Shown: positions 4,036-38,019 of the stretch, piece after piece
Position numbering within the stretch: position 1 is the first letter of the stretch
How the letters are laid out: every line of letters starts with the position of its first letter
Translations under genes and position numbers: made by a program
Notes under the pieces: model-generated
The model's database searches: none
Seen by the model: only the letters and a program-made list of their open reading frames with translations
Told to the model about the DNA's origin: nothing
Assembly (NCBI GenBank): GCA_001776475.1
Contig: MFBQ01000025.1
Location: forward strand, 1 to 41,554
DNA length: 41,554 nt
Origin: Candidatus Curtissbacteria bacterium RIFCSPLOWO2_01_FULL_41_18
GTDB lineage: Bacteria > Patescibacteriota > Microgenomatia > Curtissbacterales > GWA2-41-24
Direction: 5' to 3'

Positions 4036-5223
4036 ATGGACAAAATAGATGAACTGTTAACAAGAGCAGTAGACAATGTTATTCCTTCAAAAAAAGAGCT
4101 TGAAGATGTACTAAGGAGCGGCAAGAAACTGCGCGTATATCAGGGTTTTGATCCATCAACTGCCCAACTGCACATTGGCCATATGATAGGCCTTAGGAAA
4201 CTACGCCAGTGGCAAGAATTAGGCCATGAAGTAATTTTCTTAATCGGGGATTTTACCGGAATGATTGGTGACCCTACAGGAAAAGAAGAAACGAGACCAC
4301 TTCTTGAGAAAGAAGTCGTCGAAGAAAACGCCAAAACTTACAAGCAACAAGCCGCCAAAATTCTAAATTTTGATGGCAAAAACCCGGTAAAAATAAAGTT
4401 CAACAGCCAGTGGCTCGGGCAATTGTCCTCACAGGAATTTTTAAATTTGGCATCCCTTGTCACATATCAACAGGTCATCAAAAGAGATATGTACAGAAAA
4501 AGGATAAAAGCAGATAAAGACATTTCAATAAATGAAATTATGTACCCGATAATGCAGGGTTACGATTCAGTTGCGATGGATATAGATGTTGAAGTTGGCG
4601 GCCGGGACCAGCTTTTCAATATGATGATGGGCCGGGATCTTATGCACAAACTAAAGCGCAAAAATAAATTTGTGATGACTACGGCACTTTTGACCGATCC
4701 CCAAGGCAACAAAATCGGCAAAACAGGCGGCAATGCAATCAACTTTTCAGACTCTGCAAACTCCATGTATGGGGCTATTATGAATTTTCCGGACGATGTG
4801 ATTGTAAAAGGCCTTGAGTATCTGGCAGATGTTCCCATGGAAAAAATAAAAAAAGCCAAACAAGCATTGGAAACTTTCAAAAACCCGATTGAATATAAAA
4901 AACTTTTAGCATTGGCAGTAGTCAAACAGCTTCATAGCGAAAAGGAGGCTCAAGCCGCACAAAGCGAATTTGAAAAAACGTTCCAAAAAAGGAGTGCACC
5001 AGATTCAATCCCAACAGTAATAATTGATGAACCCAGTGTCGAGCTTGCAGATTTTCTAGTTGAAAACAGTTTAGCTGCCAGCAAATCGGATGCAAAAAGA
5101 TTACTACACCAAAAAGCCATAGAAATCGATGGACAAATAGTAGAAAATGATGAAGTCGAGTTTGAGGACAATCAAGTTTTAAAAGTCGGCAAAAAGAAAT
5201 TTGCTCGCATAAAGGTACAATAG
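4036..5223 (+). CDS. tyrS: Tyrosine--tRNA ligase
   Basis: Class I HIGH motif (AQLHIGHMIG), a KMSKS-like motif (KIGKTGG), and a C-terminal S4-like domain (SKSDAKRLLHQKAIEIDGQIV). Confidence 0.95.
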   Translation: MDKIDELLTRAVDNVIPSKKELEDVLRSGKKLRVYQGFDPSTAQLHIGHMIGLRKLRQWQELGHEVIFLIGDFTGMIGDPTGKEETRPLLEKEVVEENAKTYKQQAAKILNFDGKNPVKIKFNSQWLGQLSSQEFLNLASLVTYQQVIKRDMYRKRIKADKDISINEIMYPIMQGYDSVAMDIDVEVGGRDQLFNMMMGRDLMHKLKRKNKFVMTTALLTDPQGNKIGKTGGNAINFSDSANSMYGAIMNFPDDVIVKGLEYLADVPMEKIKKAKQALETFKNPIEYKKLLALAVVKQLHSEKEAQAAQSEFEKTFQKRSAPDSIPTVIIDEPSVELADFLVENSLAASKSDAKRLLHQKAIEIDGQIVENDEVEFEDNQVLKVGKKKFARIKVQ

Positions 5224-5251
5224 GTACGAAAAGTATGAGAGGTACGAAACG
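5214..5251. repeat. Upstream GTAC-word array, the left arm of an inverted repeat flanking the four-helix-bundle gene
   Basis: GGTACaataGGTACgaaaaGTAtgagaGGTACgaaacg with a period of about 9-10 nt. It overlaps the tyrS stop codon and abuts the GTG start at 5251. Confidence 0.7.
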
Positions 5252-5610
5252 TGGGTGAAAGTAGAGGTTTCCGAAACTTAATAGTTTGGAAACGCATGCA
5301 AGAGTTAGTAGCTTTAGTCTACAAACTCTGCAAAAGTTTACCCGAAGACGAAAAATATGGCCTAATTTCTCAAATGAAACGAGCAGCCGTTTCGGTCCTT
5401 TCGAATTTTGTAGAAGGCTATCTTAAAAGTAGTAAAAAAGAAAAACTATTGTATTTAGAACGATCTGCCACATCACTGTTGGAACTTGAAGCTCAAGTTG
5501 AAGTTTGTTTGGTTCTAGGTTATCTTAATGAAAGCGATAGCCAAATATTTAGTCAAAAGAAATCAGAAGTCGGTTATCTTTTACATCGGTACAAAAGCAA
5601 AATTATTTAG
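5251..5610 (+). CDS. Four-helix-bundle protein (23S rRNA intervening-sequence protein / S23p, Avd-like family)
   Basis: Characteristic N-terminus FRNLIVWKRMQELVALVYKLCKSLPEDEKYGLISQMKRAAVSVLSNFVEGY. The protein is 119 aa with a GTG start. Confidence 0.85.
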   Translation: MGESRGFRNLIVWKRMQELVALVYKLCKSLPEDEKYGLISQMKRAAVSVLSNFVEGYLKSSKKEKLLYLERSATSLLELEAQVEVCLVLGYLNESDSQIFSQKKSEVGYLLHRYKSKII

Positions 5611-5650
5611 CGTTTCGTACATTTCGTACCTTTTGTACTTCTCGTACTTT
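5611..5650. repeat. Downstream GTAC-word array, the right arm of the inverted repeat
   Basis: cgtttcGTACatttcGTACcttttGTACttctcGTACtttt. The first 10 nt, cgtttcgtac, are the exact reverse complement of gtacgaaacg at 5242-5251. Confidence 0.7.
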
Positions 5651-5651
5651 T

Positions 5652-5768
5652 ATGAGGCTTTTCAAACGTTCTTATCTTAAAAAAATTTGGATTGCAATTA
5701 TCATCTTGGCAGGCCTCAGCTTTATTATCGGCCAATTTGCCCTCTACCTCTTTTACGGCCTCCGATAG
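5652..5768 (+). CDS. Possible small membrane protein (38 aa)
   Basis: My translation is MRLFKRSYLKKIWIAIIILAGLSFIIGQFALYLFYGLR*, which contains one hydrophobic helix. It falls below the length cutoff of the ORF track and has no other support. Confidence 0.3.
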   Translation: MRLFKRSYLKKIWIAIIILAGLSFIIGQFALYLFYGLR

Positions 5769-5819: not shown

Positions 5820-6383
5820 ATGACTGAGCACAAAGGCATTAGGACCTCTAAAGAATATGGTATAACCGAGTACAAAATCGGCCTACAAGATTCCGATGCA
5901 ATGATTACCATTCGACTTAGTAGGAAAGGTGACAGTTATGTTGTCACTTGGCTAAACCCAGACATCAGTACAAACGATTTCTTTTCAAAAGCACAAACAT
6001 TAGTCAACAGCATTAAAGAAGCCGGCAACAATTTTCCCTTAAAAAGAAAGATGTTCAGCGGTTTAGATTATTCGTTAGATGCAGATGGTAAAGATTTACA
6101 TGAGATCGATATAGAAGTCTTCGAGCCAATTGAAGAATTGGGAGACGCTTCTTTTGCCCGTTTTAACACGCCTTACGGCGATTTTACCTGGGAAAACTGG
6201 CCAGGAAACAAAGTACTAGGAGTAATAACACACGTAAATTCTCCTGATGAGCTATTCCAATTCATTATGGATAACTCTCACCCAAGCGCTAAAGACGGCC
6301 TTCGAGAAATTTTAGAAGACGTGGGGCAAAAAGCTTCTCAAAAAATGGCCGAGTCCGAAAAATCAGGTCAGAAAGCCTCTTGA
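5820..6383 (+). CDS. Hypothetical protein
   Basis: ORF of 187 aa, preceded by TTGACA, 18 nt, then TATATT at about 5781-5810. No recognisable motif. Confidence 0.6.
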   Translation: MTEHKGIRTSKEYGITEYKIGLQDSDAMITIRLSRKGDSYVVTWLNPDISTNDFFSKAQTLVNSIKEAGNNFPLKRKMFSGLDYSLDADGKDLHEIDIEVFEPIEELGDASFARFNTPYGDFTWENWPGNKVLGVITHVNSPDELFQFIMDNSHPSAKDGLREILEDVGQKASQKMAESEKSGQKAS

Positions 6384-6436: not shown

Positions 6437-8701
6437 ATGAATCCACAAACGCCAATCGAAAATCTTCCCGGCATTGGCAGTTATTATGGCCGCAAACTTA
6501 AAAAGCTGGAGATAAATACTTTAGAGGATTTGATCTACCACTTTCCATTTCGTTACGACGATTTCTCCAAAATCGCCCAAATCCAAAATTTAACACCCGG
6601 CGAAAAAATTAGTATTCAAGGTGTTATCTGGCAAATCCGAAACATAAGAACCAGACGCGGCAAATTCGTGACTACCGCTACTATTGCTGATCAATCAGGC
6701 ACCATCGAGGTCATCTGGTTTAACCAGCCTTATTTAACCAAAACTCTTAAAGCGGGACTTCAAGTTTCACTATCGGGAAAAGTTCAGCAAGACGGCAATA
6801 AAATTAAATTGGTCTCACCTTCATACGAAATCCTGCGCAGTCAGCAAACTCAAGTCAATCAACCCAATCGTCATCCTGGAGTGGCAACGACCACGATAGG
6901 ATCTAGAGATTCTGTCGTGAAGTTTACCCCGAATCAAAGAGAGATCCTTCGCTCCGCTCAGGATGACAGAAATGAGGGGCTCCAGAATGACAAGGTAGAT
7001 GGGCCGTCAACTCTCCATACGGGCCGCCTCGTACCTATTTACCCCGAGACTGAAGGCCTTTCATCCAAATGGCTAAGAGGGAAAATTGCCGCAATCCTGC
7101 CTGCTTATCTTAAAACACAAAAGGACTTCCTCCCCCAAAAAATTTTAGAAAGCCAAAAAATGATTCCGCTTGATTCGGCCTTGACCAAAGTTCATTTTCC
7201 CCGGAATTATCAAGATGTTGAGACGTCCAGACGCAGGCTGGCGTTTGACGAACTTTTCTTAACCCAGCTGATGTCACAAATGAGAAAACGTCAGTGGGCA
7301 GAAGAAAGGTCGGCCCCCAAAATGCACATCCCGAAAGTTAAGCTGGCAAGTTTTATAAAAAGTCTGCCTTTCGCGCTAACAGGCGCTCAAAATAAAGCCA
7401 TTGCGCAAATAATTGAAGATCTCAAAAAGCCAAAACCAGCTAACCGACTTTTGGAAGGTGACGTTGGCTCGGGCAAAACCGTGGTCGCTGCCTGCGCCGC
7501 TCTTGTGGCTCATACAAACAACTTCGACACCCTCCTGGCTGCTCCCACCGAAATCCTAGCCTTTCAGCATCACCAAACTCTCACCAAAATCCTTAAACCT
7601 TTTGCAACCAGTGTTGGCATCTGGACTGGATCTAAAAAACAAAAGGGCAACATCGTCTGTGGTACCCATGCTCTTTTGACAACTTTCAAAGCCGAAAGAG
7701 AAGTCGGCTTAGTGGTAGTTGATGAGCAACATCGCTTTGGAGTTGCCCAAAGAGCTAAATTATTTTTGGATCAATCAGAAGAGTTTACTCCCCATCTTTT
7801 GACCATGACTGCAACTCCTATTCCTCGAACTTTAGCCCTGACCCTTTATGGCGATTTAGACCTTTCCGTTCTTGACGAAATGCCAGCTGGCCGCCAAAAA
7901 ATTGCCACTTTCGTTGTACCTAATCACAAACGTACTGAGGCCTACAAATTCATCGAAAAACAAATTGAAGAGGGCAGGCAAGCTTTCATCATCACGCCTT
8001 TCGTTGAGCCTTCCGAAAGCATGAACACTGTCAAAGCGGCTATCGACGAGTTTGAAAAGTTGAAAAAAATTTTCAGTGACATTTTGTCATCGCGAGCGCA
8101 GCGAAGTGATCCAACACGCAAGATTGCTTCGTCTGTGACTCCTCACAATGACAGAAACAATGCTCCAATAAAACTCGGGCTACTTCATGGCCGACTCAAA
8201 TCAAAAGAAAAAGAATTGGTTATTGATAAGTTTAGGTCAAATAAAATTCACATCCTAGTCGCAACTCCTGTTGTGGAAGTTGGAATCGACGTTCCCAACG
8301 CCACCATAATGCTCATTGAATCGGCTGAGCGTTTTGGCTTAGCCCAACTTCATCAGCTACGAGGCAGAGTCGGCAGGGGAAAGCATAAATCATACTGTTT
8401 CCTATTTACAGATTCACAAGCCGAAAATTCTATCAAAAGGCTTAAAAGCATGGAAAAAATCGCCGTCGGATTCAAGCTCGCCGAAATAGATCTTAAAATG
8501 CGCGGAGCGGGCGAAATATTTGGCCTTAAACAATCCGGATTTTTAAATTTTAAAGTTGCCGACCTTTCCGATCGAGTCACAATCGTTGCAGCCCAAAATC
8601 AAGCCCACAATATCTTGATAGCTGACCATACCCTTAAAAAATTTCCTGCTCTTCACGCGAAACTCGAAACCCTCAAAAACCAATACTCTCAGCCAAATTA
8701 A
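6437..8701 (+). CDS. recG: ATP-dependent DNA helicase RecG carrying two in-frame repeat insertions
   Basis: Walker A (GDVGSGKTVVA), DEQH box (VVDEQHRFG), TATPIPRTLA, LLHGRLKSKEKE, and motif VI (QLRGRVGRG), with an N-terminal OB/wedge region. The 754-aa length exceeds my recollection of typical RecG length by roughly the size of the two inserts. Confidence 0.93.
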   Translation: MNPQTPIENLPGIGSYYGRKLKKLEINTLEDLIYHFPFRYDDFSKIAQIQNLTPGEKISIQGVIWQIRNIRTRRGKFVTTATIADQSGTIEVIWFNQPYLTKTLKAGLQVSLSGKVQQDGNKIKLVSPSYEILRSQQTQVNQPNRHPGVATTTIGSRDSVVKFTPNQREILRSAQDDRNEGLQNDKVDGPSTLHTGRLVPIYPETEGLSSKWLRGKIAAILPAYLKTQKDFLPQKILESQKMIPLDSALTKVHFPRNYQDVETSRRRLAFDELFLTQLMSQMRKRQWAEERSAPKMHIPKVKLASFIKSLPFALTGAQNKAIAQIIEDLKKPKPANRLLEGDVGSGKTVVAACAALVAHTNNFDTLLAAPTEILAFQHHQTLTKILKPFATSVGIWTGSKKQKGNIVCGTHALLTTFKAEREVGLVVVDEQHRFGVAQRAKLFLDQSEEFTPHLLTMTATPIPRTLALTLYGDLDLSVLDEMPAGRQKIATFVVPNHKRTEAYKFIEKQIEEGRQAFIITPFVEPSESMNTVKAAIDEFEKLKKIFSDILSSRAQRSDPTRKIASSVTPHNDRNNAPIKLGLLHGRLKSKEKELVIDKFRSNKIHILVATPVVEVGIDVPNATIMLIESAERFGLAQLHQLRGRVGRGKHKSYCFLFTDSQAENSIKRLKSMEKIAVGFKLAEIDLKMRGAGEIFGLKQSGFLNFKVADLSDRVTIVAAQNQAHNILIADHTLKKFPALHAKLETLKNQYSQPN
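6869..6994. mobile_element. Family-A palindromic repeat element (126 nt), in-frame inside recG
   Basis: Near-identical to 37300-37434 in carA. It has nested inverted repeats: gtcatcctg (6870-6878) with caggatgac (6959-6967), aggatct with agatcct, and terminal cctggag with ctccag. It translates as RHPGVATTTIGSRDSVVKFTPNQREILRSAQDDRNEGLQNDK. Confidence 0.75.
8085..8153. mobile_element. Family-B palindromic repeat element (69 nt), in-frame inside recG
   Basis: Termini tgtcatcgcgagc and ctcacaatgaca are imperfect inverted repeats. The termini and the aagattgcttcgtc core match the intergenic copy at 24850-24945. It translates within ILSSRAQRSDPTRKIASSVTPHNDRNN. Confidence 0.65.
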
Positions 8702-8745
8702 TTCACTGATTGACATCTTTGCACAAAGCACGTTATCATTGTATC

Positions 8746-9130
8746 GAAAACTGCATAGCTAAGCGCTGGCAGGTTTTTTGTTGGTAAAATGGGCAGCGAA
8801 AGAATTCCTCAACGCAGCAGAGTCTATCCGCGTGACGGTAGAGACACACAGCCATATAGAGGACCCTCTGCAGACGTTCCTCGAGTTCCTCGACCCCGTC
8901 GAAGAAAACTTGGCTCGCTTAGCATTGAAGCTCCACTAGGAGTACCAATTACCCCGAATAACGACTATCAACGCAGACGAACAAAGGACCACCAGATATT
9001 AACACCACTTACACGTGAACCAATCAGGCAAGTGCAGCAAAGCGGCAAGGGGTCTTTATTTGGCGGAACAAGCTCCGATTCAATACTAAGGGCAAGAAGA
9101 CGTTTCAGGTAATAGAGAGCAACAAGCCGC
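8746..9130 (+). ncRNA. Candidate structured non-coding RNA or long leader; class unknown
   Basis: This spacer is about 49 percent GC by my count over 8781-9130, against 24 percent for 9181-9250. An upstream promoter-like site has TTGACA (8710-8715), 18 nt, then TATCAT (8734-8739). A long-range pairing links 8758-8765 to 8916-8923 and 8768-8779 to 8903-8914. The only ORF here (8789-9112) is Arg/Pro-rich, has no RBS and is not protein-like. Confidence 0.3.
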
Positions 9131-9132
9131 TC

Positions 9133-9161
9133 TTGACGAGTAGTCTCTACCACACTATAAT
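9133..9161 (+). promoter_or_regulatory. Sigma70-like promoter of the rpmF operon
   Basis: TTGACG (9133-9138), a 17-nt spacer, then consensus TATAAT (9156-9161). Confidence 0.55.
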
Positions 9162-9257
9162 CCCCCCTAACCTCTTGATACGACAAAGCGATTTGTAGTT
9201 TCATAGACATAGGTATCTAAATTTTTATTTTTGATGTTTAATATTTGATTTTTAATC

Positions 9258-9449
9258 ATGGGTGCACTTCCTAAGAAAAAACACGCAAAATCAAGGACTA
9301 GAAGGCGAAAATCGACAATTAAGCTTAAGGTGCCAAATCTGGTTACCTGCCCTAAATGCCAAAGTCTGAAATATCCGCATCGCACATGTCCAAACTGTGG
9401 CTTCTACAAGGAACCACGTGCATCCAGATCAGCGGATAAAAAGGCTTAA
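9258..9449 (+). CDS. rpmF: 50S ribosomal protein L32
   Basis: MGALPKKKHAKSRTRRRKS N-terminus and a zinc ribbon, CPKC...CPNCGFYK. Confidence 0.93.
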   Translation: MGALPKKKHAKSRTRRRKSTIKLKVPNLVTCPKCQSLKYPHRTCPNCGFYKEPRASRSADKKA

Positions 9450-9496
9450 ACCACAACCCTATAGTAGGGTTGCATCTTTGATGGGTTGATAGAATA

Positions 9497-9880
9497 ATGA
9501 AAACAAAAAGTGATCCTAGACACTTGAATCGCGTTAAAGATGTCAAATACTTATTTGAAAAAGTTTTCAGAAACGGCTTTCAACCTCCAAAAAACTCACA
9601 AGCAGGCAGAGTGCTTGAGCATCAAAAGGCGATTGACAAATTAATTATCCAGAATGCCCCTGCTTGGCCAATTTCCCAAATCGCACCAGTTGATCTGGCT
9701 ACCTTAAGACTTGCGATCTGGGAACTCTTATTTAATACTAAAAAAGAGCCCCACAAGGTAGTTGTTGACGAGGCCGTTGAAATAGCCAAGGAATTCGGAT
9801 CGGAGTCATCGCCTAAATTCATTAACGGCGTTTTGGGTTCTATAATAAGTTCAAAGTTGAAAGGTCAAATATCAAAATGA
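9497..9880 (+). CDS. nusB: Transcription antitermination factor NusB
   Basis: Conserved C-terminal block VVVDEAVEIAKEFGSESSPKFINGVLGSI. The protein is 127 aa. Confidence 0.85.
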   Translation: MKTKSDPRHLNRVKDVKYLFEKVFRNGFQPPKNSQAGRVLEHQKAIDKLIIQNAPAWPISQIAPVDLATLRLAIWELLFNTKKEPHKVVVDEAVEIAKEFGSESSPKFINGVLGSIISSKLKGQISK

Positions 9881-24220: not shown

Positions 24221-24724
24221 CTATGGCGTACAAGCTCCTGTGGTAATTTCGTAAGCTTTTCCGCTTGTCGATGTCCAGCACCAAACATAAGTACCGGGTG
24301 AACTCGTCGGCTGCTCCAAGGTTATATATGTCGCTGATTCAGAAGTAGCACCATTGGTTGAATAACAGTAGTAGGCACTCTTCGGATCCGTTGGTACCTG
24401 TTTCAAATCACCCTGGGAGGTTAACGTCGTTAGTCCACTGTCGGCACCACACTCTGAAGCACCGTTCACCGGATATAATCCCTGACCGGGTGTAGTGTAA
24501 TATGCTTGCAGTGCCGTTGAGATTGAACCAATGTCACTCATTCTGGCACTGTCTCGTGCTTGTTTAGTTCTCTTGCCGGGATTTGCGGCAACCAATACCG
24601 CTGCTGCCAAAATACCAAGAATTGCAATAACGATTAGAAGCTCAATAAGGGTAAAACCACGAAATATCTTCTTTCGGGCAGGTAAAAACACTTCTTTTAA
24701 ATCACCCCCTCTCAAAAATCTCAC
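24221..24724 (-). CDS. pilA: Type IV major pilin (PilA-like)
   Basis: FRG|FTLIELLIVIAILGILAAAVLVA class III signal and four C-terminal Cys residues. The longest ORF starts at the GTG at 24724. A GTG at 24691, preceded by GAGGGGGTGA, gives the typical 12-aa leader MFLPARKKIFRG and is my preferred start. Confidence 0.88.
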   Translation of the reverse strand: MRFLRGGDLKEVFLPARKKIFRGFTLIELLIVIAILGILAAAVLVAANPGKRTKQARDSARMSDIGSISTALQAYYTTPGQGLYPVNGASECGADSGLTTLTSQGDLKQVPTDPKSAYYCYSTNGATSESATYITLEQPTSSPGTYVWCWTSTSGKAYEITTGACTP

Positions 24725-24743
24725 TTATTGTTTCCTAACTCAA

Positions 24744-24771
24744 GTATTATCAACATACGCTTCTTTGTCAA
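24744..24771 (-). promoter_or_regulatory. Putative pilin promoter
   Basis: On the minus strand: TTGACA (24771-24766), a 16-nt spacer ending in TGA, then TAATAC (24749-24744). Confidence 0.4.
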
Positions 24772-24849
24772 GCACATAGACTTTAGGTTGTTGAAAACCA
24801 ACTAGCTTTGGCGTTCATGGGAAAAGATTGCTGCGACAAACGAACTTTT

Positions 24850-24945
24850 TGTCATTGCGAGCACTTCGACTACGCTCAGTGTAAACTTTAGCGTGGCAAT
24901 CTGTTTTAGTCTAAGATTGCTTCGTCGCTGACTCCTCGCAATGAC
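24850..24945. mobile_element. Family-B palindromic repeat element, intergenic copy (96 nt)
   Basis: tgtcattgcgagc ... gcgtggcaatctg ... aagattgcttcgtcgctgactcctcgcaatgac. The terminal inverted repeats are GTCATTGCGAG and CTCGCAATGAC. It shares its termini and the gattgcttcg core with 8085-8153. Confidence 0.7.
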
Positions 24946-25056
24946 TTAGGAAGAGGTTTTCAGCAAGCTCAGACTTTTTAAAACTGCGATGTAAGATTTA
25001 GGCCCGCAGTCCTGAGTCTAACGAAGGACGAGAACCGCAATCTCACTTCCATAAAG

Positions 25057-26268
25057 TTAGAATTGACTAGTGAGATTATATATTGGCAGAATAATCGAAA
25101 GAACCAAAACACCTACACCCACACCCAAAATGACCAAAACTACCGGCTCAAGCGCCGTGGTCAGGTTTCTGATCAAGTTTTCACTCTCTCCCTCAAAATA
25201 AACAGCCAGCCTTGCCAAAACCTCATCCATTTTACCGGTTTCCTCACCTACCCTAACCATTTGCCCGACAATTGGCGGGAAAGCTGGATTTGAAGTTAAT
25301 GGTTGATACAGAGGTGAACCTCTTTCAACTCTGGCGATTGCCTGATCAATCCCTGCTTTATAGGCAGCACTTGTTAAGATATCCCGAACAACTCTTAACG
25401 CTGTAATAATTGGAATACCTGTGCCGACAAGCAGTCCAAGAGTTCTGGTAAATTCCGCCAAAACCAGAGTCTTTCTAATTTTGCCCCAAACAGGCAACTT
25501 TAAAACTATTACAGACATTGCCTGAGCTCCGCTTGGAGTTTTAGAAAAAACTCTTAAGCCCCATATGCCGCCAACAATCGCGATTAGTATAAGCCACCAG
25601 AAATTTCTCATGATATTGGAGATTAGAATCAAGATTTTTGTCGGCAAAGGCAGTTGGGTACCAAGTTCTGTATAAAGACTCGTAAGCTTGGGGATCACAA
25701 ATACCATCATCAAAAACATCACGATAATCATTACACAGACAACTATAGCGGGATAAATAAAAGCCCCACGGGTTTTACCCTTAAACTCCCTGTCTTTTTC
25801 CAAAGATTGCGCCAGCTTATTAAGAACCTTATCCAAAACACCTCCAGTTTCACCGGCCTCAATAAGCTTTATATAAATTACGTCAAAAACCTTTGAGTGT
25901 CTTGAGAAAGCCTGGGAAAGCGACATGCCGCCCTCAATATCCGTCACAATTTCGCCCAAGACTTTAGGAAAAGCACCGCTGGTTTGCCTTTGCAAAATTA
26001 CCAAAGCATCTATAAGAGGGAGGCCTGCCGAAATCATTGTCGAGAGCTGTCTTGTAAAAGTAACGATATCCGAAGTCGAAACCCCACCACCCGGTCTCCA
26101 GACAGAAATCTTGGCCAAAAACCCTTCACTGCTGGCACTTTTTATTTGTATCGGAACCAGCTTTTCTTTTCGCAGCATCGACACCACTGACTTTTCGTCT
26201 AGGGATTCAACCTCGCCTGTAAATTGTTTGCCGTTTTGATCTTTAGCTACAAATTTGTAGACTGGCAT
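25057..26268 (-). CDS. pilC: Type IV pilus platform protein PilC (GspF family)
   Basis: Two GspF repeats (FTRQLSTMISAGLPLIDAL and FTRTLGLLVGTGIPIITAL) and three TM segments. 403 aa. Confidence 0.92.
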   Translation of the reverse strand: MPVYKFVAKDQNGKQFTGEVESLDEKSVVSMLRKEKLVPIQIKSASSEGFLAKISVWRPGGGVSTSDIVTFTRQLSTMISAGLPLIDALVILQRQTSGAFPKVLGEIVTDIEGGMSLSQAFSRHSKVFDVIYIKLIEAGETGGVLDKVLNKLAQSLEKDREFKGKTRGAFIYPAIVVCVMIIVMFLMMVFVIPKLTSLYTELGTQLPLPTKILILISNIMRNFWWLILIAIVGGIWGLRVFSKTPSGAQAMSVIVLKLPVWGKIRKTLVLAEFTRTLGLLVGTGIPIITALRVVRDILTSAAYKAGIDQAIARVERGSPLYQPLTSNPAFPPIVGQMVRVGEETGKMDEVLARLAVYFEGESENLIRNLTTALEPVVLVILGVGVGVLVLSIILPIYNLTSQF

Positions 26269-29113: not shown

Positions 29114-29149
29114 GTTAGTTACTAGGTTACTAGGTTACTAGGTTATTAG
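29114..29149. repeat. Tandem 9-mer array in the pilB 5' leader
   Basis: gttaGTTACTAGGTTACTAGGTTACTAGGTTATTAG starts 3 nt from the pilB start codon. An inverted copy, AGTAACCTAG, lies at 29194-29203. Confidence 0.75.
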
Positions 29150-29305
29150 ACTACCGGGTTAGGTCAAAACCAAGAATTCAGGTTTTTATACCCAGTAACC
29201 TAGAAGCCCAAAAACCCAGACACCTATATATATTGATCATAACAAATTAAAGGCATGAATTGAAAACAACAATCATCAAGAGATAAAATCACAAAAGGAA
29301 TCACC

Positions 29306-36819: not shown

Positions 36820-38019
36820 ATGGATGCCAAATTAATTCTTGAGGACGGAACTGTTTTTGCAGGAAAAGCTGCCGGCTATCCTAAGTCTATTTCCGGCGAA
36901 GTTGTATTTGCAACCGGCATGACCGGCTACGATCTTTCACTAACTGACCCTTCATACACAGGCCAAATTCTTACATTTACTTATCCTTTAATTGGCAATT
37001 GGGGAGTCTCACCAAAACAATTTTGGGAATCAGAAAAAATCCAAGTCGCCGGTGTGGTAATAAGTGATTTAACAACTCACCCCAGCCACTGGCAATCGCA
37101 AAAAACTTTAAACGATTGGTTAATAGAAGAAAAAATTCCGGCAATTGTCGGCATAGACACGCGCGCCCTAACCCAAAAACTGAGGGAAAAAGGAGTAATG
37201 CTTGGCAAAATCGTGATAGGCGATCAAGACGTAAAATTCAACGATCCAAACACCAGAAACCTGGTCGCCGAAGTGTCAATAAAAAAAGTGACGGTTCACC
37301 GTCATCCTGGAGTGGCAACAACCACGATAGGATCTAGAAAAGGAAAAGATTCTATCGCGGAGTTTACCCCGAACAAAAAAGAGATCCTTCGCTCCGCTCA
37401 GGATGACAGAAATGAGAGGCTCCAGAATGACAAAGGAAAGATCCACATCGCTCTTCTCAACTGCGGTGCGAAAAACAATATTCTGCGCAATCTCCTTGCG
37501 CAAGGCGTTACGGTTTACGAACTTCCGTGGAATTTTGATCCTTTTGAAAACAATCTACCAATCGACGCTCTTGTAATTTCCAATGGCCCCGGGAATCCTA
37601 AAATAGCTAAAGAGTCAATCGCTATTATCAGAAAAGCACTGAATAGGAAACTTCCAACTTTCGGTATTTGCCTTGGCAACCAGCTCTTGGCGCTTGCTGC
37701 CGGCGGCAACACGTACAAATTAAAATTCGGCCACCGGGCGCAAAACCAGCCGACAATCCAAGTCGAAGACCCTGAGGGAACTCGAAGGGTCAACTCAAAA
37801 AGATGCTACATTACTACCCAAAATCACGGGTTTGCAGTTGATGATAAAAAATTGCCCAAAGGTTTTAAGCGCTGGTTTTACAACGCCAACGACAACACAA
37901 ATGAGGGAATAATCCACGAAAAATTGCCATTTCTTGGCGTCCAATTTCATCCCGAAGCTACCCCTGGCCCCACAGACACCGCCTGGCTCTTCGACTACTT
38001 TTTGCAAAAAATAAAATGA
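36820..38019 (+). CDS. carA: Carbamoyl-phosphate synthase small (glutaminase) subunit with an in-frame repeat insertion
   Basis: N-terminal GEVVFATGMTGYDLSLTDPSYTGQILTFTYPLIGNWGV, and a GATase triad region (FGICLGNQLLALA, VQFHPEA). Confidence 0.93.
   Translation: MDAKLILEDGTVFAGKAAGYPKSISGEVVFATGMTGYDLSLTDPSYTGQILTFTYPLIGNWGVSPKQFWESEKIQVAGVVISDLTTHPSHWQSQKTLNDWLIEEKIPAIVGIDTRALTQKLREKGVMLGKIVIGDQDVKFNDPNTRNLVAEVSIKKVTVHRHPGVATTTIGSRKGKDSIAEFTPNKKEILRSAQDDRNERLQNDKGKIHIALLNCGAKNNILRNLLAQGVTVYELPWNFDPFENNLPIDALVISNGPGNPKIAKESIAIIRKALNRKLPTFGICLGNQLLALAAGGNTYKLKFGHRAQNQPTIQVEDPEGTRRVNSKRCYITTQNHGFAVDDKKLPKGFKRWFYNANDNTNEGIIHEKLPFLGVQFHPEATPGPTDTAWLFDYFLQKIK
37300..37434. mobile_element. Family-A palindromic repeat element (135 nt), in-frame inside carA
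   Basis: Second copy of the 6869-6994 element. By eye it differs by about 8 substitutions and one 9-nt indel. It is read in the same element frame: RHPGVATTTIGSRKGKDSIAEFTPNKKEILRSAQDDRNERLQNDK. Confidence 0.75.

Follow-up and report, generated by a model that had tools for sequence, protein, structure and literature searches.

Is the palindrome that lies in frame within the recG gene of a Curtissbacteria genome a part of the protein in its own right, or a mobile repeat that the protein has come to carry? The question arises on contig MFBQ01000025.1 of Candidatus Curtissbacteria bacterium RIFCSPLOWO2_01_FULL_41_18 (assembly GCA_001776475.1; Bacteria; Patescibacteriota; Microgenomatia; Curtissbacterales; GWA2-41-24), of which positions 1 to 41,554, hereafter the window, were analyzed. 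Here, recG corresponds to the open reading frame (ORF) 6437..8701 on the plus strand and encodes a product of 754 residues, compared to ~680 residues in its homologs. An initial inspection of the letters, which we call the sequence-only reading, had proposed that a single repeat family occurs twice in this window, at 8085-8153 within RecG and at 24850-24945 between genes. Our analyses indicate, with a probability of roughly 70%, that the recG segment is a slightly decayed head-to-head dimer of hairpin units, that these units belong to a (C/T)GTC-tagged superfamily of repetitive extragenic palindromes (REPs) and Ssn-related motifs (SRMs) linked to an Ssn-like GIY-YIG nuclease, and that the dimer was inserted in frame in a RecG loop.

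Each copy proved to be a head-to-head pair of hairpin units rather than a single palindrome. The features of the two copies are as follows:

8078 to 8161, plus strand: net insertion in recG, 84 nt or 28 codons (DILSSRAQRSDPTRKIASSVTPHNDRNN), a gap in the ortholog L001.
8086 to 8111, plus strand: left hairpin unit of the RecG copy (GTCATCGCGAGCGCAGCGAAGTGATC), with a T before it (tag TGTC) and the tail CCA after it; located by the unit finder and by nhmmer (E=3.3e-6).
8112 to 8121, plus strand: spacer between the inverted units of the RecG copy, forming the loop of the long hairpin (from the fold and the sequence).
8122 to 8152, minus strand: right hairpin unit of the RecG copy (GTCATTGTGAGGAGTCACAGACGAAGCAATC), the plus strand of which reads IASSVTPHND; unit finder and nhmmer (E=2.4e-6).
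24784 to 24971, no strand assigned: full intergenic sibling of ~188 nt, with the outer inverted repeat TTG(T/C)TGAAAACC / GGTTTTCAGCAA (also written TTGCTGAAAACC/GGTTTTCAGCAA) and the 96-nt element as its core.
24851 to 24901, plus strand: left-hand unit of the intergenic pair, its inner hairpin being long; unit finder and nhmmer (E=2.9e-5).
24915 to 24945, minus strand: right unit of the intergenic copy (GTCATTGCGAGGAGTCAGCGACGAAGCAATC); unit finder and nhmmer (E=3.6e-8).

The two copies are members of one repeat family. The 11-mer GTCATTGCGAG, with at most one mismatch allowed, is found at four sites in the window, all of them at the ends of the two elements; the chance expectation is 0.46 and none of 100 shuffles reached four. 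The core AAGATTGCTTCGTC is exact in both copies, and across the 33 nt of the right arms (8120-8152 and 24913-24945) identity is 91%. In addition, a hidden Markov model (HMM) built from 177 units of this type (B-type units) from outside the window matched exactly the four B units of the two copies, with E values from 3.6e-8 to 2.9e-5. These data bear out the shared termini and core that the sequence-only reading had described, as well as its view that one family is present both as noncoding DNA and as an in-frame, repeat-derived peptide. The locations it gave also stood, but not the exact extents: the palindrome proper in recG is 8086-8152 (67 nt), the net insertion is larger, and the intergenic repeat extends to ~188 nt. 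The difference in the central part resides in the left unit, which is 51 nt long in the intergenic copy versus 26 nt in the RecG copy owing to a longer inner hairpin. Both copies fold into long hairpins, with energies of -26.5 kcal/mol (z -3.5) for the RecG copy and -36.6 kcal/mol (z -4.5) for the intergenic copy. Of the frames of the RecG copy, only the one in use is open, and all three plus-strand frames of the intergenic copy are closed. Searches of the window revealed no tRNA and no Rfam match at the gathering score; nor did Rfam give a match on 24700-25060 (E<=10) or on 8650-9550 (E<=1).

The units share a common plan, which runs YGTC, ATTGC, GAG, a variable segment, GAA/GTG/GCG, GCAAT and C, and is followed by a spacer and a reverse-complement unit. 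Structurally, an unpaired YGTC tag precedes an outer stem of 5 bp, an internal loop (GAG...GAA) and an inner segment of 6-34 nt that often pairs with itself. All four window units have GTC just 5′ of the palindrome and C just 3′ of it; the tag is TGTC in three and AGTC in the fourth. Their stems, ATCGC/GTGAT, ATTGT/GCAAT and, twice, ATTGC/GCAAT, all begin with AT, and their tails are CCA (RecG left unit), CTT, CTG and CTT, with the C invariant (the consensus tail of CGTC-tagged REPs is CCA). Among the 177 related units, GTC is preceded by C in 54% and by T in 37% (C/T in 91%) and by G in 2%; a C or T comes after ...ATC in 98%. When no pairing was imposed, GCAATC followed 348 of 352 left arms of the form ATTGC, and GCGATC followed all six of the form ATCGC, which indicates that the hairpin itself is maintained and not the sequence alone. 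In the left unit of RecG, the outer stem ATCGC/GTGAT likewise keeps its pairing by a two-sided change relative to ATTGC/GCAAT; the outer 11-bp stem of the RecG copy contains two mismatches. The inner cores vary widely (155 of the 168 extracted are distinct), and 72 of the 132 distinct cores of at least 7 nt can form a hairpin of at least 3 bp, versus 40.6 expected from shuffles. The order of plus unit, spacer and minus unit is common to both window copies and most of their siblings.

The insertion in RecG is lineage specific. The closest ortholog, L001, which is 87% identical in nucleotide sequence and has syntenic neighbors, contains an empty site that reads KFS-SQ-VKLGLLHG, and 31 residues of the window RecG correspond to only two residues (612-613) of the Thermotoga maritima RecG structure 1GM5. 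The insert is located in the loop with which the second RecA-like domain begins, in frame in the C-terminal helicase domain and immediately 5′ of IKLGLLHGRLKSKEKE, as had been proposed. Four assemblies made independently (three in ENA, one in JGI) encode an identical RecG protein with both of its inserts (the other is described below); thus, the insert is neither an artifact nor a rare variant. Compared with L001, recG as a whole has a ratio of nonsynonymous to synonymous substitution rates (dN/dS) of 0.20, and the part downstream of the insert one of 0.33; this purifying selection 3′ of the insert indicates that the reading frame through it is in use. In an AlphaFold2 model of the protein (mean predicted local distance difference test score [pLDDT] of 73), the helicase core scores 85-95, whereas pLDDT falls to 60/46/67 across residues 551-580, which comprise the insert, compared to at least 83 in the flanks. 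The insert is almost certainly translated, and it appears to form a floppy or disordered 28-residue loop. An intein, intron or bypass reading of the insert was dismissed on the basis of its size of 28 amino acids, the lack of such motifs and the open frame.

Sibling copies are widespread, and the outcome named beforehand as refuting the sequence-only reading (an absence of other copies, with likeness confined to the termini) does not hold. Exact matches to the right-hand unit subtype GTCATTGYGAGGAGTCANNGACGAAGCAATC were obtained at 46 loci in metagenome contigs, mainly of low GC content. A scan for the general architecture, carried out with one genome per species, gave at least 120 matches from many phyla; those listed include Alpha-, Gamma- and Deltaproteobacteria, Bacteroidota, Cyanobacteria, Chloroflexota, Planctomycetota, Margulisiibacteriota, Rickettsiales (the metagenome-assembled genomes L025, L070, L087 and L092) and Patescibacteria. 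The partner units vary between sibling loci. Thirteen loci align to the intergenic copy far past its 96-nt core, across 24784-24971, and the flanks of the 188-nt element are 83-98% conserved in L162, L133/136/165, L145/167, L147, L129, L144/169, L166/168 and L152. These flanks are kept in at least seven other gene contexts, where the neighbors (pseudopilins, PIN toxins, antitoxins and a zinc-ribbon gene) are unrelated among loci. The alignment over 188 nt amid unrelated neighboring genes therefore identifies the intergenic sibling as a dispersed element of ~188 nt. In the window, it sits between pilC (25057..26268, minus strand) and a prepilin gene (24221..24724, minus strand). A role as a terminator was rejected, as it contains no terminator-like site. 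A promoter-like site on the minus strand at 24743-24771 (TTGACA, 17 nt, AATACT; 10 of 12 matches) lies 13 nt off the left end of the 188-nt element, upstream of the prepilin gene, and TGTCAA is found at an equal distance from siblings that have other neighboring genes (L133, L147); perhaps an outward-facing -35 box comes with the element or is attracted by it.

Some siblings also reside within genes. Four or five of ~33 distinct composites selected by pattern are embedded in long ORFs, specifically those of MurT (PF08353), two GatD-like amidotransferases (PF07685), a PHP-like protein and a large surface protein. The embedded siblings read IASS[ML]TPRND, the counterpart of IASSVTPHND in RecG. 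The suggestion that copies in coding sequences (CDS) are systematically short and stop-free variants fared less well: the RecG copy is open in its used frame only, and in a small sample the median length is 76 nt for CDS-embedded siblings versus 87.5 nt for the others, which lends it weak support.

The window contains two further composites, which the sequence-only reading had assigned to a separate family A:

6870 to 6991, plus strand: family A composite (GTCATCCTG.../GTCATTCTG... units) of the same superfamily, lying in frame within the RecG linker that follows the wedge domain.
37301 to 37431, plus strand: another family A composite, lying in frame within carA and separating the CPSase_sm domain from the GATase domain.

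These composites are 92-97% identical to one another. The first accounts for RecG residues ~145-185, and pLDDT is below 50 over residues 136-211; the CarA protein has 399 residues versus the 361 positions of the model. A generic unit finder (GTC, 5-bp stem, loop, stem complement, C) gave 12 matches in the window, compared to 2.1 +/- 1.4 in shuffles, and 10 of the 12 fall in the four composites 6870-6991, 8086-8152, 24851-24945 and 37301-37431. Because the matches gather in all four, families A and B are branches of one superfamily. Hence, the separation of the two did not hold: both belong to a GTC-tagged, GIY-YIG-linked superfamily that is already in the literature. Three of the four window composites lie in frame in genes, and so do ~12-15% of the pattern-selected siblings. 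Peptides resembling family A (HPGVATTTIGS...SLQNDN) are found at the matching RecG linker in P0012, P0060 and P0021.

The units are associated with a nuclease gene in other genomes. In five independent loci (L118, L157, L149, L132 and L175-178), a GIY-YIG ORF of ~97 codons is bracketed on both sides by B-type units. The protein next to the B units in L118, from Lacinutrix, matches Pfam PF01541 with E=7e-18, and a phmmer search with it over the ORFs of the collected loci recovered, with E<=4e-27 in each case, those of L157, L149 and L132, three loci that had been selected solely by their match to the unit subtype of the window. This GIY-YIG family is very large, as all but two of 8,000 scored candidates reached E<=1e-5, with listed members of ~96 residues. 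In L175-178, which its source names "Patescibacteria group bacterium", one unit lies 14 nt 5′ of the ATG and an inverted unit follows right after the stop, and NTS-like ATTCCCGCGAAAGCGGGAAT units are close to the gene. The best solved relative of the flanked proteins is the UPF0213 protein 1ZG2 (E=0.0012). The arrangement of unit, nuclease gene and inverted unit on the one hand, and of unit, spacer and inverted unit on the other, is thus a relation like that of an insertion sequence to a MITE (a miniature transposable element with inverted repeats). A more distant GIY-YIG ORF (E=2e-5) at 8522-8878 of L136 directly adjoins the tRNA gene that precedes it, and a repeat of the 3′ end of this tRNA comes after it, an arrangement that resembles another kind of small integrated element.

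Four known systems provide a context for these repeats. The CGTC-tagged REPs described by Di Nocera, De Gregorio and Rocco in 2013, which include Neisseria dRS3 and Rickettsia RPE-4/-6 and occur in many phyla, have an unpaired CGTC/TGTC tag (CCTC allowed), AT-first stems and CCA-like tails and are mostly head-to-head dimers, often heterodimers; their intragenic dimers encode 20-30 amino acids, many in replication and repair genes (PMC3733652). Compared by described architecture, the window elements are alike in tag, AT-first stem, head-to-head dimers and intragenic copies, and the tail of the RecG left unit is CCA; the family to which they belong is possibly CGTC-3, abundant in Bradyrhizobium. 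Their host, in contrast, belongs to the Patescibacteria, or Candidate Phyla Radiation (CPR), which is outside the survey, and RecG is not among the genes named in the text of that study (PMC3733652). In Neisseria, NTS repeats (CGTCATTCCCGCGMAVGCGGGAATCYRG) and SRMs flank the 94-aa GIY-YIG gene ssnA (Chenal et al. 2025, PMC11893778). SsnA binds this hairpin in single-stranded DNA only, and its cut falls a few nucleotides upstream, cutting being governed by the GTC upstream of the palindrome and binding by the C after it (PMC11893778). Similar to NTS and SRM repeats, the units studied here have GTC 5′ of an AT-first hairpin that is followed by C and a pyrimidine, they flank a single-domain GIY-YIG gene on both sides, and the resemblance includes hundreds of gene-less copies elsewhere in the genome. 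They differ in their far larger in-frame share, three of the four window composites and ~12-15% of the pattern-selected siblings versus 2% of NTS copies inside genes in Neisseria (PMC11893778).

Rickettsia palindromic elements (RPEs) are in-frame palindromic repeats in unrelated housekeeping genes that are translated as fold-compatible segments, with RPE-1 being ~150 bp, according to the accounts of Ogata et al. (2000, 2002) given in PMC10969869 and PMC3733652. As likened by description, our elements resemble them in their in-frame insertion in unrelated genes (RecG at two sites, CarA, MurT, GatD and others) and in the location of the RecG inserts in low-pLDDT loops, while they differ in host phylum and in the greater length of the classic RPE-1. 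Lastly, REP/BIME elements with a RAYT (REP-associated tyrosine transposase) also consist of small hairpins, often in inverted pairs, that flank a putative mobilizing gene and lack a target-site duplication, but there a GTAG tag goes with an IS200/IS605-like tyrosine transposase, whereas here a YGTC tag goes with a GIY-YIG nuclease.

The findings suggest the following course of events. The larger form of the element consists of two inverted units around a gene for a ~97-aa, single-domain, SsnA-like GIY-YIG nuclease, which presumably mobilizes the units, and two inverted units around a short spacer would be its miniature, gene-less derivative. One such miniature of 84 nt would have entered the RecG surface loop after the split from the closest sequenced relative, kept the frame, become fixed in the population and been translated as a tolerated, disordered 28-residue loop. 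For the protein, the insert would most likely be neutral selfish DNA.

The RecG loop has been a site of insertion more than once. In an alignment of 120 RecG homologs, the insert site is mostly occupied by a loop of three residues (SKK, SPK and the like), while ~26-32 homologs carry 14-52 extra residues there; the site is unfilled in ~75% of the homologs, including the nearest. The peptides found in the filled loops derive from different unit families (VIPAKAGIQ, VIPDLIGNP, VILSEAKN, VIASETKQS, RHSGESRI and HPELVSGS), and the DNA of five filled genes contains differing GTCAT units at one place. The sister RecG L179 carries TGTCATTCCCGCGAAAGCGGGAATCCAG in this loop, which fits the SRM pattern and, except for its first base, the NTS consensus. 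In a neighbor-joining tree the filled sites are scattered among empty ones, and several filled genes have empty relatives at 84-90% identity, which points to repeated independent insertions. The motif CAAGCTC(A/G)AAC, read SSRQA(Q/R)T, was also observed at the right edge of several RecG inserts (L179, L181; P0025, P0040, P0046, P0074); it is similar to how the 188-nt element ends on its right, at 24955-24971 (CAGCAAGCTCA), and is too short for interpretation.

This one 3-codon loop has independently received at least six GTC-tagged unit families, across about a quarter of Curtissbacteria species, a second RecG linker has been struck repeatedly as well, and filled sites are flanked by a T-rich run and an A-rich run. 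Lineage-specific inserts of at least 8 amino acids are found in 43 of 121 Curtissbacteria RecGs versus 4 of 118 GyrBs, the four GyrB cases being three N-terminal extensions and one insert near the N-terminus. Identity among the matches is ~62% for RecG versus ~82% for GyrB, and with RecG less conserved, permissiveness is the simpler explanation of the loop inserts. We consider it unlikely that the loop is a true integration hotspot or selected target and not merely a permissive site. Should it be one, its basis could be targeted insertion at a T-run/A-run junction exposed as single-stranded DNA or, alternatively, could be an interplay of hairpin- or cruciform-forming selfish DNA with the branch-migration helicase that processes such structures, an interplay on which Di Nocera et al. 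speculated for repair genes (PMC3733652). GyrB tolerates another kind of selfish insert, since the Curtissbacteria GyrBs P0321 and P0332, of ~1,077 residues, contain an intein domain (PF14890).

Several observations weigh against the interpretation of the RecG segment as a nuclease-linked, translated dimer of this superfamily. No GIY-YIG gene is present within the 41.5-kb window, the flanked GIY-YIG proteins are placed by Pfam PF01541 and are only candidate members of CDD family cd10448 (the Ssn clade), and mobilization by Ssn is put forward in PMC11893778 as no more than a hypothesis. The window units are bipartite, with a 5-bp outer stem and a variable inner hairpin of ~6-34 nt, whereas CGTC-1 to -4 have a single 8-9 bp stem and a 4-5 nt loop, some members having other loop lengths (PMC3733652). 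The published SRM pattern, HGTCWYN(0-2)YYVSBRHN(0-5)WNVSBRGN(0-2)RNCYNB, has zero matches in the window, with 0.11 expected, and by that pattern the window units are not filed as SRMs; it does match at the RecG loop of L179 and near the GIY-YIG gene of L175. Translation of the insert is something that we infer rather than observe. Finally, the filled/empty pairs L001-window, L180-L179 and L182-L181 reveal no target-site duplication or clean junction, their junctions having diverged; inverted ends, as in a classical transposase-derived MITE, are present.

How the repeats spread is the issue on which an alternative has most to say. They might do so without the GIY-YIG nuclease, through a tyrosine transposase of the RAYT or IS200/IS605 type, through some other transposase that acts in trans, or through recombination or gene conversion among the copies, leaving the nuclease gene as a frequent passenger or a target. 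Free shuffling of partner units among copies fits recombination, the lack of a visible target-site duplication is as in REP/RAYT systems, no dedicated transposase was found for CGTC REPs by Di Nocera et al. (PMC3733652), and SsnA is known to cut single-stranded DNA and to reduce transformation, not to transpose (PMC11893778). However, the unit tag is YGTC and not the GTAG of RAYT-associated REPs, the loci inspected have no transposase-like ORF next to the elements, and the units precisely bracket the GIY-YIG gene in five independent loci. Spread without the nuclease has a small chance. Retention of the insert for a nucleic acid role in recG, either as mRNA structure with an effect on translation or stability or as a single-stranded DNA mark for an Ssn-type nuclease limiting incoming recG recombination, is quite improbable given that the termini of the RecG copy are decaying (two mismatches in the outer 11-bp stem), that related RecGs have unrelated unit families or nothing at the site and that there is no terminator-like or Rfam feature at the element. 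Such a role would nevertheless suit the strong RecG hairpin and the compensatory change that keeps its left-unit stem paired, the type IV pilus and competence-type genes encoded in the window, and the reduced integration of transforming DNA caused by NTS repeats in Neisseria (PMC11893778).

The peptide, rather than the DNA, could be what matters if its 28 residues were co-opted as a functional RecG loop or favorably altered RecG activity, in line with the view of Di Nocera et al. that "repair genes are targeted". The excess of inserts in RecG over GyrB, the variety of unit families at one loop and the enrichment of intragenic REPs in replication and repair genes (PMC3733652) are what one would then cite, but the insert peptides are mutually unrelated and set by the repeat DNA, the insert is predicted by pLDDT to be disordered, about three quarters of the homologs do without it, and RecG is simply less constrained than GyrB; we regard co-option as very improbable. 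That the resemblance is one of chance palindromes, or an assembly artifact, has practically no likelihood. Although the shared termini are short, chance is excluded by the shuffle controls and by a shared arm of 33 nt at 91% identity, and the identity of the protein in four ENA/JGI assemblies and the 46 exact unit matches elsewhere speak against an artifact. The insertion of a GTC-tagged hairpin dimer into RecG therefore remains the reading that we favor.

Other features of the window were noted. The ORF 5251..5610, which encodes a PF05635 (23S_rRNA_IVP/bAvd-like) four-helix protein, is flanked by 44-nt inverted repeats at 5208-5251 and 5611-5654 (80% complementary) and, together with the ORF 5820..6383, sits between tyrS and recG; L001 has at this position only an 81-nt GTCAT-unit pair (L001 3073-3153). 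The region 5208-5654 looks like a small inserted cassette. Between recG and the small rpmF gene (L32, ~9257-9448), 8702-9256 is 91% identical to L001, above the conservation of recG; it has no Rfam match and no convincing ORF, and may be an unannotated gene or RNA. An intergenic tandem array, (GTTACTAG)x3 at 29118-29143, with a partial inverted copy at 29190-29215, lies upstream of a holB-like gene.

The kind of element described here, including in-frame copies in repair genes, is already known. What is new is the host phylum, the bipartite-stem variant, the high in-frame share and the recurrent RecG loop, of which the recurrence at RecG is the only part that is moderately surprising. The GTC-tagged hairpin repeat and GIY-YIG system reaches the CPR, with a stem variant that the published pattern misses. 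In practical terms, peptides such as IASS.TPRND, VIASEAKQS and ILRSAQDDR in CPR proteins are repeat-derived loops and not domains, frameshifts or assembly errors. The tiny CPR genomes tolerate in-frame repeats in core genes (RecG, CarA, MurT, GatD) far above the 2% of Neisseria, and the RecG loop, with its many independent insertions at one site, is a natural experiment on target choice and mobility.

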